A stretch of 64,000 bases of DNA from the sequence record NC_048205.1; one strand, 5' to 3'. The DNA comes from Escherichia phage vB_Eco_mar004NP2. Of this stretch, positions 39,037 through 48,812 are shown in pieces. Both the position numbers and the translations under genes were made by a program. The notes under the pieces are model-generated. The model had not been told where the DNA came from. It made no database searches and saw only the letters and a list, made by a program, of their open reading frames with translations. Every line of letters starts with the position of its first letter. Within the stretch, counting starts at the first letter, position 1.

Positions 39037-41882
39037 AGAAAATACTAGATAGTGCTAGAAACTACTTAAAAAATAATAGCAGAATAAAAACTGCTAGTCT
39101 AATTTCCCTAGAATTACCTGGCTCTACTGGTACTAGTACTGCTTTTATTTATTTAACTGATTATTTTAGAGATGTACTATATAATGGTATTTTGTACCAG
39201 GCCGGTAAGGTTAAGTCCATTAGCACACATAAACAAAATAGAGATTTATCTATTGGCAGTCTATCTTTTACTATTACGGGTACAGCGCAGGATGAAGTAC
39301 TGAAATTAGTGCAGAATGGTGTGTCCTTTTTAGATAGAATAGTAACAATCCACCAAGCAATTATTACAGAGGATGGTTCTATTTTACCTGTAGACCCAGA
39401 CACAAATGGCCCTTTATTATACTTTAGAGGGAGAATTACCGGTGGGGGTATTAAGGACAACATTAGTACTTCTGGGGTTGGAACCTCCACAATTACTTGG
39501 AATTGTTCTAACCAATTCTATGACTTTGATAGGGTTAACGGTAGATTTACTGATGATGCTTCTCATAGAGGGCTTGAGGTTGTAGCAGGGCAATTAGTTC
39601 CATCTAACGGGGCTAAAAGACTTGAGTACCAAGAAGATTATGGGTTCTTTCATGCTAATAAAAGTATCTCTATTTTAGCAAAATATCAGGTACAGGAAGA
39701 GAGATACAAGCTAAAGTCTAAGAAAAAGCTATTTGGCCTATCTAGAAGCTATAGTCTTAAAAAGTATTATGAGACTGTTACTAAAGAAGTAGATATAGAT
39801 TTTAACCTTGCTGCTAAGTATATACCAGTAGTTTATGGTGTACAGAAAATACCAGGAATACCTATTTTTGCGGATACGGAACTACACAATCCTAATATAG
39901 TTTATGTAGTATACGCCTTTGCTGAAGGGGAGATAGACGGTTTTCTTGACTTTTCCTTCGGGGATAACCCTATGATTTGTATGGACTCTAATGATAGCTC
40001 TGCTAGAACCTGTTTCGGTGTTAAAAAAGTAGCAGGAGACACCATGCAAAGAATAGCATCAGGAATATCTTCTAGTAGTCCTTCTGTGCATGGTCAGGAA
40101 TATAAGTATAATGATGGTAATGGTGATATAAGGATTTGGACTTATCATGGAAAAGCTGATCAAACGGCTTCTGAAGTATTAGTAGACATAGCGAAAGAAC
40201 GTGGGTTCTACCTTCAGAATATGAATGGCAATGGACCGGAGTACTGGGATGCTAGGTATAAACTACTAGATACTGCATACGCAGTGGTGCGCTTCACTAT
40301 TAATGAAAATAGGACTGAGATTCCTGAAGTTAGTGCTGAAATTCAAGGTAAAAAAGTAAAAGTCTATCATTCTGATGGTAGAGTAACTGCTAATAGTACT
40401 AGTTTAAATGGTATTTGGCAAACACTTGACTACTTAACCTCCGATAGATACGGTGCTAATATTACCATTGATCAGTTCCCTCTTCAGCAATTAATACAGG
40501 AAGCAGCTATTTTAGATATTATAGATGAATCCTATCAGGTATCTTGGCAGCCATATTGGAGATACGTTGGGTGGACTGATCCACTAGCAGAAAATAGACA
40601 AATAGTACAAATGAATACTATTCTGGATACATCTGAATCAGTATTTAAAAATGTGCAAGGTTTATTAGAGTCCTACGGTGGGGCTATTAACAACTTATCT
40701 GGCCAGTACAGGATTACTGTAGAAAAATACTCTAATACTCCATTAGAGATTAATTTTCTAGATACTTACGGTGATTTGGAGCTATCAGATACTACTGGTA
40801 GAAATAAATTCAACTCAGTTCAAGCATCTATCGTAGATCCAGCCCTTAGCTGGAAAACTAATTCCATTACATTCTATAACTCCAAGTATAAGGAACAGGA
40901 CAAGAACCTAGACAAAAAATTACAATTATCTTTTGCAAATATAACTAACTACTATACTGCTAGAAGTTTTGCAGACAGAGAACTTAAGAAATCTAGGTAT
41001 TCTAGAACCCTCTCATTTTCTTTACCATATCAATTCATTGGTATTGAGCCTAATGATGCTATTGCATTTACATACGACCGTTACGGATGGGATAAGAAGT
41101 ACTTTTTAGTAGATGAAGTCGAAAACTCTAGGGAAGGAAAGATAAATGTTACTCTACAGGAGTATGGAAAAGATGTATTCATCAACTCTGATCAAGTAGA
41201 TAATAGTGGTAATGATATACCAGATATTAGTAACAACGTTCTTCCTCCTAGAGATTTTAAGTATACTCCTACACCCGGTGGCTTAGTTGGTTCTATAGGT
41301 AAAAATGGTGAGTTATCCTGGCTTCCGAGTCTAACCAATAATGTAGTTTATTACTCTATTGTGCACTCAGGCCATGCCGAACCTTACATAGTACAACAGT
41401 TAGAGACCAATCCTAACGAACGTATGATCCAAGAAATAATTGGGGAACCAGCAGGTCTGGCTATATTTGAGATAAGAGCAGTAGATATTAATGGTAGAAG
41501 AAGTTCCCCGGTGACTCTGTCTATAGAACTTAACTCTGCTAAAAACCTTAGTGTAGTATCTAATTTTAGGGTAACTAATACTGCTTCTGGAGATGTAACT
41601 GAGTTTGTTGGCCCAGATGTAAAACTAGCTTGGGATAGAATACCTGAAGAAGATATAATAGAGAGTATATTTTATACACTTGAAATACACGATTCGCAAA
41701 ATAGGATGTTAAGAAGTGTACGTATTGAAAATCAGTATACTTATGACTATTTATTAACATATAATAAGGCAGACTTTGCTCTCCAGAACAGCGGTGCTCT
41801 AGGTATAAATAGAAAATTGTATTTTCGTATTAGGGCTGAAGGGGATGATGGAGAACAGTCTGTGGAGTGGGCATCCATTTAA
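39033..41882 (+). CDS. baseplate hub/tail tip protein (pb3-like)
   Basis: 949 aa following Dit. Confidence 0.65.
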   Translation: MKKILDSARNYLKNNSRIKTASLISLELPGSTGTSTAFIYLTDYFRDVLYNGILYQAGKVKSISTHKQNRDLSIGSLSFTITGTAQDEVLKLVQNGVSFLDRIVTIHQAIITEDGSILPVDPDTNGPLLYFRGRITGGGIKDNISTSGVGTSTITWNCSNQFYDFDRVNGRFTDDASHRGLEVVAGQLVPSNGAKRLEYQEDYGFFHANKSISILAKYQVQEERYKLKSKKKLFGLSRSYSLKKYYETVTKEVDIDFNLAAKYIPVVYGVQKIPGIPIFADTELHNPNIVYVVYAFAEGEIDGFLDFSFGDNPMICMDSNDSSARTCFGVKKVAGDTMQRIASGISSSSPSVHGQEYKYNDGNGDIRIWTYHGKADQTASEVLVDIAKERGFYLQNMNGNGPEYWDARYKLLDTAYAVVRFTINENRTEIPEVSAEIQGKKVKVYHSDGRVTANSTSLNGIWQTLDYLTSDRYGANITIDQFPLQQLIQEAAILDIIDESYQVSWQPYWRYVGWTDPLAENRQIVQMNTILDTSESVFKNVQGLLESYGGAINNLSGQYRITVEKYSNTPLEINFLDTYGDLELSDTTGRNKFNSVQASIVDPALSWKTNSITFYNSKYKEQDKNLDKKLQLSFANITNYYTARSFADRELKKSRYSRTLSFSLPYQFIGIEPNDAIAFTYDRYGWDKKYFLVDEVENSREGKINVTLQEYGKDVFINSDQVDNSGNDIPDISNNVLPPRDFKYTPTPGGLVGSIGKNGELSWLPSLTNNVVYYSIVHSGHAEPYIVQQLETNPNERMIQEIIGEPAGLAIFEIRAVDINGRRSSPVTLSIELNSAKNLSVVSNFRVTNTASGDVTEFVGPDVKLAWDRIPEEDIIESIFYTLEIHDSQNRMLRSVRIENQYTYDYLLTYNKADFALQNSGALGINRKLYFRIRAEGDDGEQSVEWASI

Positions 41883-43939
41883 TGATTTCAAATAATGCAC
41901 CAGCCAAAATGGTCTTAAATAGTATAATGACTGGATATACTTTGGCTTATGTCCAGCACTCCATTTATACTGATTATGATGTTATTGGTAGATCTTTTTG
42001 GTTAAAAATAGGAGAAAGTATAGATAGACGTGATTACACCGGTATAGATACTTTCTTCGTAATGATTAATAATTTAACCCCCTCTACCTCCTATGAGATT
42101 CAGGGGGCTTTCTATGACTCAATTATTGACTCAGAGTTACTAGAAGCTAAGATTGGTATCAACCTCTCTAATGAAACTAACTTTAGAACAAAGGAAAAGC
42201 CAATAATTACTGCAGCAAGATCTGAATCAGAACCCGTTGACGTTGGTGTTGGTGCTCCAATAGTTGTTGTAGAGACTGCTGGTGAGGCTAGTTACTGCAC
42301 TATTGAATTAAAAAGTACTGCATCAGAAGATAGTGAATGGGTTAAATATTACATAGGAGCACTGGGACCTACTATCAAATTTGGTGGTGTTCCTGTTGGC
42401 AACTATAAGATCAGAATATCTGGTCAAGTTACTATGCCAGATGGTGTTACAGTTGACTCATCTGGCTATTATGAATATCCTAGCGTTTTCACTGTAGCTT
42501 ATAATTTCGTACCACCTACTGCACCTACTAACATTGACTTTAAAGCTGCACGAATCGCAGACGGTAAGGAACGATATGATGTTAGAATAGAGTGGGACTG
42601 GGAACGTGGTGCTGGTGCTAATGTCCGTGAATTTCTGGTTACTTATATAAACTCTGAAGAATATTCTAAGACTGGCTGGGCTAAAGCTCAAAAGATAAAC
42701 GTTGGTGCTGCCAGAGCCGCAACGATTATATCATTCCCATGGAAAGTTGAGCATACTTTTAAGGTATCATCAATTGCCTGGGGACCAAATAAGCAAGATA
42801 TAGCAGAATCAGCTCCTGTAACGTTTATACTTAATGAAGATACTCCTCTAGACAACAGCTTTGTCAATGAGACTGGTATTGATGTTAACTATGCCTTTAT
42901 TAAGGGCAGCATGAAAGATGGAGAAATCTGGAGACAGACATTCTTAATCGACGCAGCTACTGGTGCTATTAACATTGGTCTGCTAGATGAAGAAGGAAAA
43001 GCACCTATTTCTTTTGACCCTATAAACCGTGTTGTTAACGTTGATGGTAAAGTAATTACTAGAGATATTAATGCTGCGAACTTTATCATGACTAACTTAT
43101 CTGGTAAGGATAATCCAGCAATTTACACTCAAGGTAAATCTTGGGGTGATAATAACTCCGGTATTTGGATGGGTATGGATAATACTTCTGCCAAAGCTAA
43201 ACTAGACATTGGTAACGCCACACAATGGATACGTTATGATGGTGATGTGCTACGTATTTCTAGTGGAGTAGTTATTGGAACTCCTAATGGCGATGTAGAT
43301 CTGGGTACTGGTATGCAAGGTAAGCAAACAGTATTTGTTTATAAGTTAGCAACATCTCTACCTGCTAAACCACTAGAACAAGATTATCCGCCTCCTGGTT
43401 GGTCAAAAACTCCACCTAACCGTACAGATATGACACAAAATATCTATACCACTACAGGTACGCTTGATCCAGTTACTAATAGGTTATTAGAGGGTACTAG
43501 CTGGTCGGATGTAGTTCAGTGGAGTGGTACTGAAGGTACTATAGGGCATGATGGACAACGTGGTCCTGGGATGTATTCTGTAGGTATAGCAGGTTTAGGT
43601 GGTTGGGATGATGGACAAGCTAATTCCTTCTTTCAAAGTAACTTCGGTTCTCCACCAGTTAAATACGATGTATTAACTGAATTTAATAGTAATGCCCCCC
43701 AATCAGCATTTACAAGGCAATGGAATGGGTCTGGTTGGGTTAACCCTGCAATGGTTCTCCATGGAAACATGATTGTTAATGGGACGGTGACGGCAGATAA
43801 AATTGTAGCAGGAAATGCTTTCTTATCTCAGATCGGTGTTAACATCATTTATGATAGGAATGCTGCATTATCGGGAAACCCTGAGGCATACTACAAGATG
43901 AAGATAGACCTAAATAGTGGGTATATCCATATAAGGTAA
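41867..43939 (+). CDS. central tail fibre/straight fibre protein (pb4-like)
   Basis: 690 aa following hub gene. Confidence 0.55.
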   Translation: MGIHLMISNNAPAKMVLNSIMTGYTLAYVQHSIYTDYDVIGRSFWLKIGESIDRRDYTGIDTFFVMINNLTPSTSYEIQGAFYDSIIDSELLEAKIGINLSNETNFRTKEKPIITAARSESEPVDVGVGAPIVVVETAGEASYCTIELKSTASEDSEWVKYYIGALGPTIKFGGVPVGNYKIRISGQVTMPDGVTVDSSGYYEYPSVFTVAYNFVPPTAPTNIDFKAARIADGKERYDVRIEWDWERGAGANVREFLVTYINSEEYSKTGWAKAQKINVGAARAATIISFPWKVEHTFKVSSIAWGPNKQDIAESAPVTFILNEDTPLDNSFVNETGIDVNYAFIKGSMKDGEIWRQTFLIDAATGAINIGLLDEEGKAPISFDPINRVVNVDGKVITRDINAANFIMTNLSGKDNPAIYTQGKSWGDNNSGIWMGMDNTSAKAKLDIGNATQWIRYDGDVLRISSGVVIGTPNGDVDLGTGMQGKQTVFVYKLATSLPAKPLEQDYPPPGWSKTPPNRTDMTQNIYTTTGTLDPVTNRLLEGTSWSDVVQWSGTEGTIGHDGQRGPGMYSVGIAGLGGWDDGQANSFFQSNFGSPPVKYDVLTEFNSNAPQSAFTRQWNGSGWVNPAMVLHGNMIVNGTVTADKIVAGNAFLSQIGVNIIYDRNAALSGNPEAYYKMKIDLNSGYIHIR

Positions 43940-43945
43940 TAAATA

Positions 43946-44368
43946 ATGAGTACTGAAAATAGAGTTATAGACTTAGTAATAGATGAAAAAGTACCTTATG
44001 GTCTAATGATGCAATTCTTAGATGTTGATGATAGTACTTATCCACCTACAAATACCCCTGTTAACTTAACAGGGTATTCCCTAAGGGGTACTATAAAGGC
44101 GGGGCTTGATGAGAACGCGGAAACTTTGGCATCTTTTACTACTAAAATTATTGATGCTGCTCAAGGTGCTATAGCTATAAGTTTACCTGTAGAGGCGGTA
44201 GATAATATTGGTGAAAAAGCTACCAAAGAGAGAGATAAGTATAACCCTCGCCAACGTTTTGCAGGATACTATGATATAATTATGACACGAGATGTCATAG
44301 GATCAGCTATTAGCTCTTTTCGTATAATGGAGGGTAAAGTATTTATCAGTGATGGGGTAACTAGATAA
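43946..44368 (+). CDS. tail collar protein (140 aa)
   Basis: position. Confidence 0.4.
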
Positions 44369-46758
44369 TGGCAATAACTACTAAGATTATTGTACAACAA
44401 ATATTAAATATTGATGATACTAAAGCTACTGCTAGTAAATTTCCTAGATACACAGTAACTCTTGGAAATTCTATTAGCTCTATTACTGCTAATGAGTTAG
44501 TATCTTCTATAGAGGCTGCTGCTAAATCTGCTGCGGCTGCAAAAGATTCTGAAATAGCTGCTAAAACCTCAGAACTTAATGCTAAGAACTCTGAACAGAA
44601 AGCTGCTATTTCTGCTGGAGCTTCTGAAGCTTCTGCTACTCAGTCTGCTACCTCTGCTACTCAGTCTGCCACTTCTGCTACTAAATCCGCAGAATCAGCT
44701 GCAGCTGCAAAAACCTCTGAAACCAATGCTAAGTCTAGTGAAACAAAAGCTAAAACTAGCGAAACTAATGCAAAAGCTAGTGAAACAAAAGCTAAAACTA
44801 GCGAAACTAATGCAAAAGCTAGTGAGGATAAGGCAAAGGCTAGTGAAACCAACGCTGCTGCTTCCGCTGCTGCTGCAAAAATTAGCGAAACTAACGCTAA
44901 AATTAGTGAGACTAATGCTGCTGCGTCTGCTGCCGATTCTAAAGGTTTTAGGGATGAAGCAGAAACATTCGCTAGACAAGCTGCAACATCTGCATCCGCT
45001 GCTAAAGTATCCGAGACTAATGCAAAAGCTAGTGAGACTAAAGCCAAAGCTAGTGAGACTAAAGCCAAAGCTAGTGAGACTAACGCAGCTAGTTCCGCAA
45101 CTTCAGCTAGTCAGTCAGTAACTACTATTCAAGGCTTAAAATCAGATGTTGAGCAGCTAAAATCAGATACTCAGGCCATTAAAAACAGTGCTGTAACAGA
45201 GACAACAGCTATAAAGGCAGATGTTGCGCAGTTAAAAACAGACACACAAGGCATTAAGAATAGCGCGATAACAGAAACTACCACGCTAAAAAACCAAGCT
45301 GCTAATTCTGCAACTAGTGCTGCTAATTCTGCTACTGAAGCAGGAAAACAAGCTACTAATGCTGCTAATAGTGCTAATACTGCTAAAACTGAAGCCGATC
45401 GTTCAAAAACTGAGGCTGATAGATCAGAAGCTGCTGCTAATTCTACCCCCGACATTCAACCTCTTCCAGATGTATGGATACCGTTTAACGATTCTCTAGA
45501 TATGATCACCGGCTTTGCGCCAGGCTATAAAAAAATAACAGTCGGTGATGAGGAAATAACACTGCCCAGTGACAAGATTGTTAGCTTTACACGTGCATCA
45601 ACTGCGACATATATTAATAAATCAGGTGTATTAACTGTTGCGGGGATTGATGAACCTAGATTTGAAAAGGATGGTTTGCTCATTGAGGGGCAAAGAACTA
45701 ACTATCATCTTAACTCACTTACGCCATCTAAGTGGGGAGCTACAACAAGTGTAACTATAACAGAAAGTGGTGTTGATGAGTTTGGATTTACTTATGGGCG
45801 GTTTCAAATAAAGGACGAAAAAATTGGGACAAATACGGCAATGAATATCGCTGCGATTTCAGGAGGAAGAGGTGTCGATGTTACCGGAACTGAAAAGTAT
45901 GTTACAACATCATGTCGTGTAAAAAGCGATAGTGCTAATATACAATGTCGTATAAGATTTGAAAGATATGACGGATCCGCATATTTTTATCTAGCAGATG
46001 CATATCTTAATATAACAGATATGTCCATTAGAAAAACGGGAGTAGGGGCTGCAAGAATAACCGCCCGAGCGGAGAAAGAATCTAATGGATGGATTTATTT
46101 CGAGGTTACATATCAATCTGAAGCTATTGATAATATGGTTGGCTCTCAGATCCAAATTGCTCCACCTGTTTCACCTGGCACTTATTCTGGTGGAGAGTAC
46201 TTACAGGTAGCTACCCCTCAAGTTGAAGGCGGGGCGTGCGCTTCATCGTTTATTATTACAGAAGCGACTCCAGTAACACGGGCAAGCGATATGGTCACAT
46301 TACCAATAAAAAACAACCTTTACAATTTGCCGTTTACAGTACTTGTGGAAGCTCATAAAAACTGGAGTATAACGCCAAATGCAGCGCCACGTGTTTTTGA
46401 TACCAGCGGTCATCAAACCGGAGCGGCTATTATTCTTGCTTTCGGATCTGCCGAAGGCGATAATGATGGTTTCCCTTATTGCGATATAGGTAAATCAAAC
46501 AGAAGGGTTTACGAGAATGCAAAACTAAAAAAGATGATCATGGGAATGAGAGTAAAGAGTGATTACAATACTTGCTGTGTAAGTAATGCCAGAATATCAA
46601 GCGAAACAAAAACGGAATGGAGATACATACAATCAACGGCTACTATAAGGATTGGAGGACAAACAACTACGGGCGAACGTCATCTTTTCGGGCACGTTAG
46701 AAACTTTAGAATCTGGCATAAGGAACTAACTGATAGACAAATGAAGGAGTATGTATGA
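44368..46758 (+). CDS. L-shaped tail fibre protein A with N-terminal tandem repeats and C-terminal LamG-like domain
   Basis: 796 aa; SETNAKASETKAKT repeats; C-terminal RNFRIWHKELTDRQMKEY resembles LamG/ConA-like domain ending. Confidence 0.6.
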   Translation: MAITTKIIVQQILNIDDTKATASKFPRYTVTLGNSISSITANELVSSIEAAAKSAAAAKDSEIAAKTSELNAKNSEQKAAISAGASEASATQSATSATQSATSATKSAESAAAAKTSETNAKSSETKAKTSETNAKASETKAKTSETNAKASEDKAKASETNAAASAAAAKISETNAKISETNAAASAADSKGFRDEAETFARQAATSASAAKVSETNAKASETKAKASETKAKASETNAASSATSASQSVTTIQGLKSDVEQLKSDTQAIKNSAVTETTAIKADVAQLKTDTQGIKNSAITETTTLKNQAANSATSAANSATEAGKQATNAANSANTAKTEADRSKTEADRSEAAANSTPDIQPLPDVWIPFNDSLDMITGFAPGYKKITVGDEEITLPSDKIVSFTRASTATYINKSGVLTVAGIDEPRFEKDGLLIEGQRTNYHLNSLTPSKWGATTSVTITESGVDEFGFTYGRFQIKDEKIGTNTAMNIAAISGGRGVDVTGTEKYVTTSCRVKSDSANIQCRIRFERYDGSAYFYLADAYLNITDMSIRKTGVGAARITARAEKESNGWIYFEVTYQSEAIDNMVGSQIQIAPPVSPGTYSGGEYLQVATPQVEGGACASSFIITEATPVTRASDMVTLPIKNNLYNLPFTVLVEAHKNWSITPNAAPRVFDTSGHQTGAAIILAFGSAEGDNDGFPYCDIGKSNRRVYENAKLKKMIMGMRVKSDYNTCCVSNARISSETKTEWRYIQSTATIRIGGQTTTGERHLFGHVRNFRIWHKELTDRQMKEYV
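44560..45110 (+). repeat. tandem 21-nt (7-aa) coding repeats inside tail-fibre gene
   Basis: repeated GCTAGTGAAAC(A/T)AA(A/T)GC(T/A)AAA units. Confidence 0.8.
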
Positions 46759-47033
46759 GAGATATAATCCTAAAATTCACGGATAAATCAGCATATAAAG
46801 ATTTTCTCTTAAAAATAGAGTGGGATACTAATGAAAATTTGCAAAACCAAATAATGCTTGACGAAATTGGATATACTTATACTGAAATCTCTCCGCTAGG
46901 TGATGAGGAACCTAGATGCATCCGTAATGAAGGGTATTATATTAATGTAAGGATTCTTGATGAATCCTTTACTTACGAATCCTTCGAGCCTTTTATAGTT
47001 CAGCTAGAACAGCCTCTTAGAGTATGGGCATAA
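46755..47033 (+). CDS. hypothetical protein (92 aa)
   Basis: ORF coupled between the two fibre genes. Confidence 0.45.
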   Translation: MRDIILKFTDKSAYKDFLLKIEWDTNENLQNQIMLDEIGYTYTEISPLGDEEPRCIRNEGYYINVRILDESFTYESFEPFIVQLEQPLRVWA

Positions 47034-47042
47034 GGTTTTATA

Positions 47043-48812
47043 ATGGTAACTAAAACAGTAATTCCTACGGATATTACAAAACTTAAAAATGAGTCACTTA
47101 ATAAAAATAATAACCTGAGTGACTTAGCAGACCGTGCAGCAGCATGGCTAAATGTGCGTCCTATTGGATCTACCCCTCTTGCTGGAGATCCTGTTAGTGA
47201 CTATGATGCCGCAACTAAGCGTTGGGTGGAGAACAAACTTAATACTGGCACAGTAGGACCCACAATGAATGGTGTTATGAACTACGGGGTGGGGGATTTT
47301 CATCTTCGAGATAGCCGTGCGTATATTCAACCTTATGAGGTAGTTTCTGATGGGCAGCTTCTTAACAGGGCTGACTGGCCTGAACTTTGGGCGTATGCAC
47401 AAATGGTTGGAGCTATAGATGATTCAGTTTGGTTAGCAGATGTAGGACAACGTGGGAAATATTCTACGGGAGATGGTACCACTACTTTCCGCGTCCCAGA
47501 TCGTAATGGTGTGCAACTAAATTCAATCAAAGGGTTATTCGCTCGTGGTGACGGTGGGGGGGATGCTGGTCAAGCTGGTTCAATATCAGAAGCTGCAGCA
47601 CCCAATATTACTGGTAGTTTTCCTGGCGCTATTGCTGGTGCATATGAAGAAGCGCTTAATAGATATTCATCTAGATTTGGTCTTATTGGGGCGATTGGTG
47701 GTGAAAACGGCTTAGGTGCCGCTCCTGGAGGTGCATCTAAATCATTCGCCGTAGTTAATCCTGATAACCAATACGGATTTAGTTTTGATGCAAACTTAGC
47801 GGACCCTGTTTATGGGCGTTATGGAATAAAAGGTACTATTATTCCAAACAGCTTTATAGGTGTCTGGGTAATCCGTGCTTCTGGTGGGTTCGTGGCTGCA
47901 AAGACTTCGTGGAGTGTTATTAGTGGTGATGCTGTCAAACCTAATACTGGTACTACTGTTTATGGCGGGAGTGTACTATCTGAGTATAAAGTAGGTACTA
48001 GTAGTGAGGCTGTAAGTACACTACGAGCTAAAGCTACTATTGGTGGCACCTACTCTACTGAACTACTAATAGACAATAAATCTACCGGTAAATCGAATTC
48101 CGCCCAGCTTGTAGATAATGGGGATTTTGTAACGGATCGTTTTAAAGCTAGATTAGTTACTGGCATGGCGTGGTCTCAGACTGGCTGGGTACAAGGTACT
48201 CTTTCTCAGAACGAGGTCAATATAGGTAGTACATTTAACTTTAATAGTATATTGAGCGGTTCCCAGTCTTCTTCCGCAGGGTATAAGACATCTGCACATT
48301 TTGGATTAATTCATAATGACTTAGGCTCATTTGCAGATTCTTGTTGGCAGGTAGCGGGAGATGATGATAATAAATTTGGTGTGCGTTTAAAAATTCAGCC
48401 GAATAATAATAGTATTTATTTTTATTCTTGGTGGCCAGGTGCTTCAGCAACCTATACTTTGCAATTAAATGCTGTATCTGATTCTCGCTTAAAGCATGAT
48501 ATTAAGGCTATAGACGCAACTAAGTCCATCGAGGTATTAAAAGGATTAGAATTCCAATCCTTTGTATATAATAACGATGAAAAATCTCGTGTCCGACGTG
48601 GGGTTATTGCTCAGCAAGTAGAGACTATAGAACCACTTTATGTAAAAACTAGAAAATTTTATAATGATGACGGAATAGAGCAGGAGCAAAAGGAATTAGA
48701 TACAACTCCAATGCTTCTTGACACTATGCATGTTGTGCAAGATCTTATTAAACGGATTGAAGATCTAGAGAAAGAGCTTGAGCAATTAAAGGTACAATTA
48801 GTATCACAATAA
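47043..48812 (+). CDS. tail fibre protein B with C-terminal intramolecular chaperone (S74-type autoproteolytic domain)
   Basis: 589 aa; SDSRLKHDI motif and C-terminal coiled coil. Confidence 0.65.
   Translation: MVTKTVIPTDITKLKNESLNKNNNLSDLADRAAAWLNVRPIGSTPLAGDPVSDYDAATKRWVENKLNTGTVGPTMNGVMNYGVGDFHLRDSRAYIQPYEVVSDGQLLNRADWPELWAYAQMVGAIDDSVWLADVGQRGKYSTGDGTTTFRVPDRNGVQLNSIKGLFARGDGGGDAGQAGSISEAAAPNITGSFPGAIAGAYEEALNRYSSRFGLIGAIGGENGLGAAPGGASKSFAVVNPDNQYGFSFDANLADPVYGRYGIKGTIIPNSFIGVWVIRASGGFVAAKTSWSVISGDAVKPNTGTTVYGGSVLSEYKVGTSSEAVSTLRAKATIGGTYSTELLIDNKSTGKSNSAQLVDNGDFVTDRFKARLVTGMAWSQTGWVQGTLSQNEVNIGSTFNFNSILSGSQSSSAGYKTSAHFGLIHNDLGSFADSCWQVAGDDDNKFGVRLKIQPNNNSIYFYSWWPGASATYTLQLNAVSDSRLKHDIKAIDATKSIEVLKGLEFQSFVYNNDEKSRVRRGVIAQQVETIEPLYVKTRKFYNDDGIEQEQKELDTTPMLLDTMHVVQDLIKRIEDLEKELEQLKVQLVSQ

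Follow-up and report, generated by a model that had tools for sequence, protein, structure and literature searches.

In the 64,000-nt stretch of phage DNA analysed here (hereafter the window), positions 44368..46758 on the plus strand encode a lateral (L-shaped) tail-fibre protein of the ltfA type, 796 aa in length, the N-terminal part of which is built of tandem heptads. It is likely that the 21-nt units of this gene encode the heptads of a long, helical, coiled-coil proximal arm, that the arm changes in length by unit-wise slippage or recombination, and that the large deletions seen in some relatives are degenerate variants. The rod would connect the N-terminal anchor of residues 1-40, clamped beneath the LtfC collar, with a binding domain at the C-terminus (aa 365-796). 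As direct repeats make up the coding DNA itself, replication slippage or recombination between them would add or remove whole units. The products would be in frame, and mostly in heptad register, because misalignment pairs equivalent codons. Large deletions would arise in settings where the phage can do without its lateral fibre, such as growth on rough laboratory hosts. Arms of this kind are known, and the phage concerned is nearly identical to one already sequenced.

A predicted heptad-based rod in the ltfA-type fibre protein

The gene was assigned from its open reading frame (ORF), its identity to PMBT29 and matches to PHROG families and PDB entries. It is 100% identical to the coding sequence (CDS) annotated as "tail fiber" in Salmonella phage PMBT29, a T5-like Tequintavirus, and 91% identical to the gene for the "lateral tail fiber protein" of IrisVonRoten (Bas32). 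Across 10.4 kb, the window and PMBT29 differ by four single-nucleotide polymorphisms (at 47638, 47931, 48370 and 49058) and one 2-nt indel; the window is a close relative of PMBT29, distinct from that record. A literature search recovered no mention of PMBT29. The 796-aa protein matches phrog_1419, phrog_5481 and phrog_24369 (tail or tail fibre). The matches to the last two begin at residue 1 and so include the anchoring segment, and the match to phrog_24369 (T5 pb1) covers residues 3-205. Residues 1-215 match LtfA of phage DT57C (PDB 8HQZ; 8hqz_d residues 1-230; E=1.5e-36), and a match to the same protein is also obtained with the rod alone (E=1.2e-13). A Pfam scan of the 796-aa protein identified no domain, and no match to Peptidase_S74 was found in it; the S74 domain sits in the next fibre gene, an ltfB-like gene for a 589-aa protein with a Peptidase_S74 chaperone domain (47043..48812, plus strand). 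With the S74 chaperone absent from ltfA and present in the next gene, the locus is therefore of the two-gene (DT57C-like) type and not of the T5 single-gene type.

The anchoring segment (aa 1-40; 44368..44487, plus strand) was delimited by homology to residues 1-40 of DT57C LtfA, in line with published cryo-EM accounts of that protein (PMC10713586) and of residues 1-40 of T5 pb1 (PMC12750041). It would insert under the collar encoded by ltfC/p132 (43946..44368, plus strand; PF23926 LtfC, E=8e-15; phrog_34807), the attachment partner of the fibre N-terminus. AlphaFold2 predicted no regular structure for residues 1-40 (pLDDT <50), and only 1 of 41 codons in the anchor differs from IrisVonRoten.

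We measured protein periodicity as lag-7 residue identity against 1000 shuffles, and located arrays in the DNA with Tandem Repeats Finder. In residues 42-258, lag-7 identity was 0.50, as compared to 0.16 ± 0.024 in the shuffles (z=14.3). The signal was weaker in residues 258-365 (0.28, z=5.8), and none was detected in the 432 residues of the C-terminal part, aa 365-796 (z=0.3). Lag-7 identity and an arrangement of the sequence in rows of seven delimit an unbroken register of about 31 heptads (aa 42-258; 44491..45141, plus strand). A reading made from the nucleotide sequence alone (the sequence-only reading) had described a tail fibre with an N-terminal part built of heptads, and both the homology and the z-score of 14.3 bear this out. 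The heptads that it placed at 44560-45110 are real, with a register that is actually wider (44491-45141) and a helical rod that continues to residue 357 (45438). The heptad description holds for residues 42-258, while residues 257-306 consist instead of two 25-aa units, and the near-identical 21-42 nt units that it had reported are found in three sub-arrays only, the remainder being periodic at the protein level only.

At the DNA level, the plus strand contains an array of 2.9 copies of a 21-nt unit encoding TQSATSA-type heptads (44623..44682; 84% matches), followed by the main SETNAKA/SETKAKT array (44718..44856), which was resolved as 6.6 units of 21 nt or as 2.5 units of 42 nt with 93% matches. 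The main array holds the longest exact direct repeat, 49 nt, with copies at 44735 and 44777. Two further 21-nt units (KISETNA) are located at 44878..44919, and the most regular array, with 3.6 copies of 21 nt at 92% matches, at 45013..45087. The latter two are separated by a non-repetitive GFRDEAETFARQAATSASAAK stretch (aa 193-213; 44944..45006, plus strand). The 25-aa (75-nt) units, each of 7+7+11 residues (LKSDVEQLKSDTQAIKNSAVTETTA), occupy residues 257-306 (45136..45285, plus strand), and degenerate heptads cover residues 307-357 (45286..45438, plus strand; Tandem Repeats Finder 45291-45395, period 54). In these distal heptads, the Ala/Ser pattern is offset by +1 from that of the proximal heptads, as expected from two units of 25 residues, whose total of 50 equals 1 modulo 7.

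The heptad unit reads T-N/K-A-K-x-S-E. Position 3 is occupied by Ala in 24 and by Ser in 5 of the 30 heptads, and position 6 by Ser in 27, which gives the conserved Ala and Ser a 3/4 spacing. Thr predominates at position 1; position 2 is Asn, Lys or Ala, position 4 Lys or Ala, and position 7 Glu or Ala. We infer that the conserved Ala and Ser represent the core a and d positions, flanked by Glu and Asn/Lys. The spacing is that of a coiled-coil core, yet its occupants, Ala (24/30) and Ser (27/30), make the core small and half-polar. The same Ala/Ser pattern is also present in the stretch of DT57C LtfA that has been seen as a three-helix bundle.

AlphaFold2, run on the single sequence as a monomer and without an alignment, predicted helices at residues 41-205 and 211-357 with pLDDT mostly 80-90 and with disordered ends. 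Together with the DT57C homology, this suggests an α-helical rod of residues 41-357 (44488..45438, plus strand), presumed to be a trimeric coiled coil. The lowest model confidence and the sole predicted helix break (aa 206-210) fall within the GFRDEAETFARQAATSASAAK stretch, which may act as a hinge, and a +3-aa insertion in the HMD-P4 group of relatives adjoins this putative hinge. With a rise of 1.5 Å per residue in an α-helix, the 317 helical residues correspond to a rod of about 47 nm. In the homologues, the helix of DT57C LtfA begins at T40 and is part of a three-helix coiled coil that projects from the collar (PMC10713586), and T5 pb1 consists of an anchor (1-40), a coiled coil (41-218) and then the fibre domain (PMC12750041). 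By analogy, the rod of the window fibre is presumably a parallel trimer.

DT57C LtfA (8HQZ; PMC10713586, PMC4728585) resembles the window fibre in its homologous N-terminus and rod, in its position after ltfC, in a helix from about residue 40 and in a locus with both ltfA and ltfB. It differs in that it has a shorter rod of lower regularity, in which SETNAKA units are few, and in that its distal part, with a phiEco32 gp14-like region, 19-aa repeats and a C-terminal chaperone, is unrelated to the window fibre, where the C-terminal domain is of the Stf/GTA-spike-fibre type without an S74 chaperone. T5 pb1 has the same progression from anchor (1-40) through coiled coil to distal fibre (PMC12750041), while being a single 1396-aa protein with a 500 Å β-rich fibre domain and its own chaperone, and its coiled coil (41-218) spans about 178 aa, as compared to about 317 aa in the window fibre, which in residues is nearly twice as long. 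In the Stf proteins of lambda and lambdoid prophages, the proximal coiled coil, residues 102-393 in lambda, is made of the same KTSETNAK-type heptads (PMC12617516). The N-terminal attachment domain and the attachment site on the virion are different from those of the window fibre. Rod-like coiled coils that evolve in length by gain and loss of repeat units are also found in T4 fibritin (gpwac), M proteins and trimeric autotransporter adhesins; these stalks have no sequence relationship to the window fibre, and their cores are hydrophobic, not Ala/Ser.

Rod length among relatives

We compared ltfA orthologues from 17 GenBank phages and 12 IMG/VR contigs, a small set of related members, and measured the span that begins at the SSIT motif (aa 37) and ends at PLPDVW, the motif that opens the C-terminal domain. 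The span is 328 aa in the window and PMBT29, SPLA5b, IrisVonRoten, Baret, BUCT632, Es2, JLBYU40 and L6jm, that is, eight phages with exactly this length; where their ltfA genes align with the window, nucleotide identity is 79-100%. It is 346 aa in T5_ev219, EC100 and three IMG/VR genomes, 321 aa in one metagenome contig (L105), 315 aa in L107, and 313 aa in HMD-P4, SIA3lw and YJin. Strongly shortened spans were found in VSe12 (230 aa), mar004NP2 and NG_A1 (216 aa each) and KS_S14 (89 aa). In the 17 phages, the rod plus anchor ranges from 125 to 382 aa, while the C-terminal domain is 420-433 aa in all 17, even at 44% identity. The sequence-only reading had called the repeats a likely hot spot for length variation, and the indels among relatives, which are unit-sized (21, 42, 294, 336 and 717 nt, and 75-nt units), support the variation in length: repeat number varies among related isolates and the length of the C-terminal domain is nearly constant.

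Phages mar004NP2 and KS_S14 each carry one clean deletion, and the sequence flanking it on either side is 99.5-100% identical to that of the window. Missing in vB_Eco_mar004NP2 are 336 nt (44536..44871, plus strand), which corresponds to 16 heptads (-112 aa), with 9 nt of junction microhomology (GCTGCAAAA). KS_S14 lacks 717 nt (44610..45326, plus strand), or 239 aa, with 7 nt of microhomology. As 239 equals 34x7 + 1, we considered whether this deletion breaks the register and rejected the idea; 27 heptads and both 25-aa units have been removed, the register is restored, and the Ala-3/Ser-6 pattern is continuous across the junction. In VSe12, the missing interval is approximately 44694..44987 (plus strand; 294 nt, 14 heptads, -98 aa), and its junction falls in a 30-nt imperfect repeat. 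NG_A1 is without 16 heptads in an interval that overlaps that of VSe12 and has a different junction; according to the alignment, it has two units fewer (-14 aa) in the 45013-45087 array. A single shared 294-nt event in NG_A1 and VSe12 was rejected from the heptad rows, which show different junctions, and the two deletions are probably independent. Junction microhomology of the deletions is 5-9 nt. From the clean deletions with 7-9 nt of microhomology, we infer slipped misalignment or short-homology recombination between direct repeats, of which they appear to be a signature.

Smaller differences follow the same units. T5_ev219, EC100 and L105 have one unit fewer (-7 aa) in the 45013-45087 array, the HMD-P4 group has a +7 aa indel and L107 a -21 aa indel. 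The relatives carry one, two or three copies of the 25-aa unit, with one extra in the T5_ev219 group and one fewer in the HMD-P4 group. The only indels other than whole units are the +3 aa of the HMD-P4 group and a -10 aa indel in L107; these displace the phase by 3 or 4 residues, so that the two core positions trade places, and phase shifts of 1, 2, 5 or 6 residues were seen in no case among the relatives compared. With repeat units of 21, 42 and 75 nt, every variant retains an open frame, and slippage by such units would not switch expression on and off.

Rods of equal length have also diverged. Between the window and IrisVonRoten, the fraction of differing codons is 0.41 in the heptads, 0.18 in the C-terminal domain and 0.02 in the anchor; the differences are mostly synonymous. 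The order of heptad variants differs between the two rods, and the divergence fits turnover or conversion among units. We found no description of heptad-number variation in T5-like fibres in the literature searched, nor of an indel spectrum that proceeds by units and preserves the register, or of its association with ltfB decay, although both are unsurprising.

Since the rod sets the reach of the receptor-binding tip from the tail, its length should affect the first, reversible contact with the O-antigen. The rod can lose from 14 heptads up to 239 aa with the gene still open and in register, and this tolerance is useful for the engineering of fibres of defined length and for interpreting the fibre genes of phage-therapy candidates.

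Integrity of ltfB and alternative explanations

In phages with an intact ltfB, the span is 313-346 aa, or -15 to +18 aa relative to the 328 aa of the window. Frameshifted ltfB genes were found in all four of the strongly shortened phages and in none of the 13 others (Fisher p=4e-4, ignoring relatedness). In KS_S14, a G7->G6 change is the sole difference in ltfB over 2058 nt; the mar004NP2 gene has G5->G4 and an added A, plus an in-frame G7->G13, and NG_A1 and VSe12 each have at least one frameshift. A short ltfB in HMD-P4 was considered as a truncation and rejected, as it is an intact, different allele of 333 aa. All four large deletions thus lie beside a frameshifted ltfB, and we therefore read them, with moderate confidence, as the decay of a fibre that the phage can do without and not as an adjustment of shaft length. 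The small steps, of one heptad or one 25-aa unit in either direction, are read as tolerated natural variation.

Previous studies bear on dispensability. Phage mar004NP2 was isolated and grown on the rough strain MG1655 (PMC6563131), and the lateral fibres of DT57C and DT571/2 are dispensable on rough hosts, where mutants lacking fibres arise frequently, with about 30% of DT571/2 clones being spontaneously fibre-defective (PMC4728585). A one-residue deletion (A198) in the LtfA rod of DT57C abolishes fibre function (PMC4728585). IrisVonRoten, which has a full-length rod, infects K-12 with restored O16 antigen (PMC8594841).

Several points weigh against parts of this interpretation. Four phages underlie the association of large deletions with a broken ltfB, which could reflect sequence quality or shared ancestry, and IrisVonRoten and JLBYU40 were also grown on K-12, yet are intact. 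The +3 and -10 aa indels break the heptad register, and in-register products follow from the mechanism itself, so that they are no proof of selection. The length evidence is a comparison among isolates, which places mutation rate and heterogeneity within stocks outside its scope. On the structural side, an Ala/Ser core is atypical for a stable coiled coil, the predicted structure is a monomer made without an alignment, and the DT57C structure models only about the first 20 helical residues while the T5 coiled coil is unresolved, with the SETNAKA part outside both.

That the periodic region adopts another repetitive fold, or is disordered, with the heptads as mere low-complexity sequence, would agree with the dominance of Ala, Ser and Thr, the polar position 6 and the lack of a Pfam domain. 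It is nevertheless extremely improbable, given a phase strictly kept for 31 heptads, a confident helix prediction and indels that avoid phase shifts of 1, 2, 5 and 6 residues. We also consider it very improbable that the shortened genes are assembly or sequencing artefacts (repeat collapse) in phages that in reality have equal numbers of units. The four shortened records do hold homopolymer indels in ltfB (G7->G6, G5->G4, an added A) and may be error-prone data, but the frame is open in every case, the four records originate from three laboratories and differ in their junctions, the G7->G13 change in mar004NP2 is untypical of read errors, and the -7 and ±25 aa differences are common to several independent genomes with intact loci. 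Assembly collapse was discarded as the main explanation, since the 5-9 nt of homology at the junctions lie far below the k-mer sizes of assemblers.

An exchange of rod segments between phages or prophages (mosaicism, by homologous recombination between genomes) has a small chance of being the main source of the length differences. The fibre is clearly mosaic, with a T5-type anchor and a C-terminal cassette common to lambdoid Stf loci, the PMBT29-type and IrisVonRoten-type rods are equal in length with different orders of heptad variants, and the copy number of the 25-aa unit tracks groups of related phages. The KS_S14 and mar004NP2 flanks, however, are 99.5-100% identical around a clean deletion, which points to events inside the gene, and the 49-nt exact tandem duplicate is local; the exchange and slippage routes are not mutually exclusive. 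It is quite improbable that the repeats form an adaptive contingency locus, in which unit number would tune fibre reach to the thickness of the O-antigen or capsule. Close relatives do vary in length, as mar004NP2 and KS_S14 do relative to the window with near-identical flanks, slip-prone tracts in the neighbouring genes differ among near-identical phages ((AG)4/(AG)3 in ltfC; G7/G6/G13 in ltfB), and about 30% of DT571/2 clones are spontaneously fibre-defective. Loci with an intact ltfB, on the other hand, hold the span at 313-346 aa, eight of them at exactly 328, large changes occur only alongside a broken ltfB, the unit is a multiple of 3 nt and so permits no on/off switching, and no host-range correlate is known. 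Unit-wise slippage or recombination within a coiled-coil arm, with large deletions as degenerate variants, is the reading that we prefer.

In a broader proposal, which we regard as rather unlikely, the whole lateral-fibre locus would be a multi-site contingency system with slip-prone tracts in ltfC ((AG)4), ltfA (heptads) and ltfB (G7), serving as bet-hedging between smooth and rough hosts. If true, the three tracts would yield fibre-less, single-fibre or short-armed subpopulations at high frequency, and this would explain the approximately 30% of fibre-defective DT571/2 clones.

Sequenced T5-like isolates are often degenerate at the lateral-fibre locus, with a shortened ltfA or a frameshifted ltfB or ltfC, and host-range predictions from such genomes may therefore be wrong.

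Neighbouring genes, the C-terminal domain and alternative-frame ORFs

The gene order pb4, LtfC/p132, ltfA is the same in 17 relatives, with pb4 (PF24168-24171) located at 41867-43939 upstream of ltfC. In ltfC, positions 44219-44228, the window has (AG)4 and an intact LtfC of 140 aa, while the PMBT29 record has (AG)3 and ltfC split into two CDSs. The ltfC gene of the T5 reference is also split, which Ayala et al. ascribed to a frameshift error (PMC10713586). In the ltfB-like gene, the G7 run at 47556-47562 is the only G or C homopolymer of at least 7 nt in the 64-kb window; slippage there may turn the second fibre protein on or off, or the run may be a place where sequencing errors tend to occur. 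The ltfB gene of HMD-P4 (locus L115, 1701-2702) encodes the same first 15 residues as the window gene at 47043-48812, its own TLKQDTSTLKSDVS repeats and an S74-like C-terminus, with 28% identity to the window ltfB product. Judged from these sequences, ltfB alleles appear to be swapped behind a conserved N-terminal tag. Between ltfA and ltfB lies a gene for a 92-aa protein (46755..47033, plus strand; phrog_1361), which has a homologue in prophage Stf loci and may be an assembly factor or adaptor.

The C-terminal domain (aa 365-796; 45460..46755, plus strand) is probably the receptor-binding part. Pfam contained no model that matches this domain, while residues 438-639 (window ~45679-46284) match NCBIfam NF048003 GTA_spike_fiber with 58 bits (cut-off 36), and the domain matches the head spike fibre Rcc01080 of the Rhodobacter capsulatus gene-transfer agent (PDB 6TB9) with E=5e-9. 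Its identity to the Stf proteins of 80 IMG/VR prophage loci is 63-74%. The 92-aa homologue was located directly downstream of Stf in 79 of the 80 loci, and in the one locus examined (L012) it is followed by a fibre gene starting with MATSTVIPGDITKLK. Besides the C-terminal domain and the 92-aa gene, the shared cassette (45460-48812; loci L012-L091) includes the part of the following fibre gene that encodes its N-terminus, MVTKTVIPTDITKLK. The prophage Stf homologues have a lambda-type N-terminus (MAVKISGVLKDG...) and a KTSETNAK-type rod. The window protein shares the KTSETNAK-type heptad rod and the C-terminal cassette with them and has a T5-type anchor in place of the Stf attachment domain (MAVKISGVLKDG...). 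The fibre is thus, as judged from sequence relationships, a mosaic of a T5-type anchor and rod joined to an Stf-type distal module.

The prophage Stf rods fall into length classes of 251 (13 loci), 293 (1), 356 (56) and 419 (1) aa, represented by loci including L012, L016, L071 and L078. These lengths are separated by 42, 63 and 105 aa, each a multiple of 7, and the 63-aa steps among the 293, 356 and 419 classes are explained by a module of nine heptads, or 63 aa (SQKAAKTSETNAKSSQTAAKTSETNAKASETAAKSSQDAAAESESAAAGSATSAAGSATAAAN). A protein search with the N-terminal 122 aa of the window fibre recovered only four short fragments, as the low-complexity repeat suppresses scores, and the heptad comparison was made with DNA matches and IMG/VR loci in its place.

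Long ORFs in other frames overlap the repeats, and the sequence-only reading had dismissed the antisense ones as artefacts, with which our results agree. They include ORFs of 135 aa (44661..45068) and 94 aa (44695..44979) on the minus strand and one of 180 aa in an alternative sense frame (44579..45121, plus strand). Relative to IrisVonRoten, the differences in the 94-aa ORF number 1 synonymous and 52 non-synonymous, and IrisVonRoten has a new stop codon within it; for the 180-aa ORF the counts are 9 and 75, respectively, as compared to 52 and 24 in the ltfA frame over the same span. The ratio for the 135-aa ORF (41/36) is uninformative because it shares third codon positions with ltfA. When synonymous codons were redrawn with the protein kept, stop-free runs of similar length appeared in the same frames, and the observed length was reached in fractions of 0.04, 0.87 and 0.30 of the simulations. 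Coding functions for these ORFs were rejected based on the substitution pattern and the codon resampling; they are by-products of composition and should stay unannotated as genes.

T5-like fibre genes with about 79-90% identity were also identified under the names "Listeria phage LM 4-14-1", "Listeria phage LM 4-11-1" and "Campylobacter phage C13", three database records that are probably mislabelled or contaminated.

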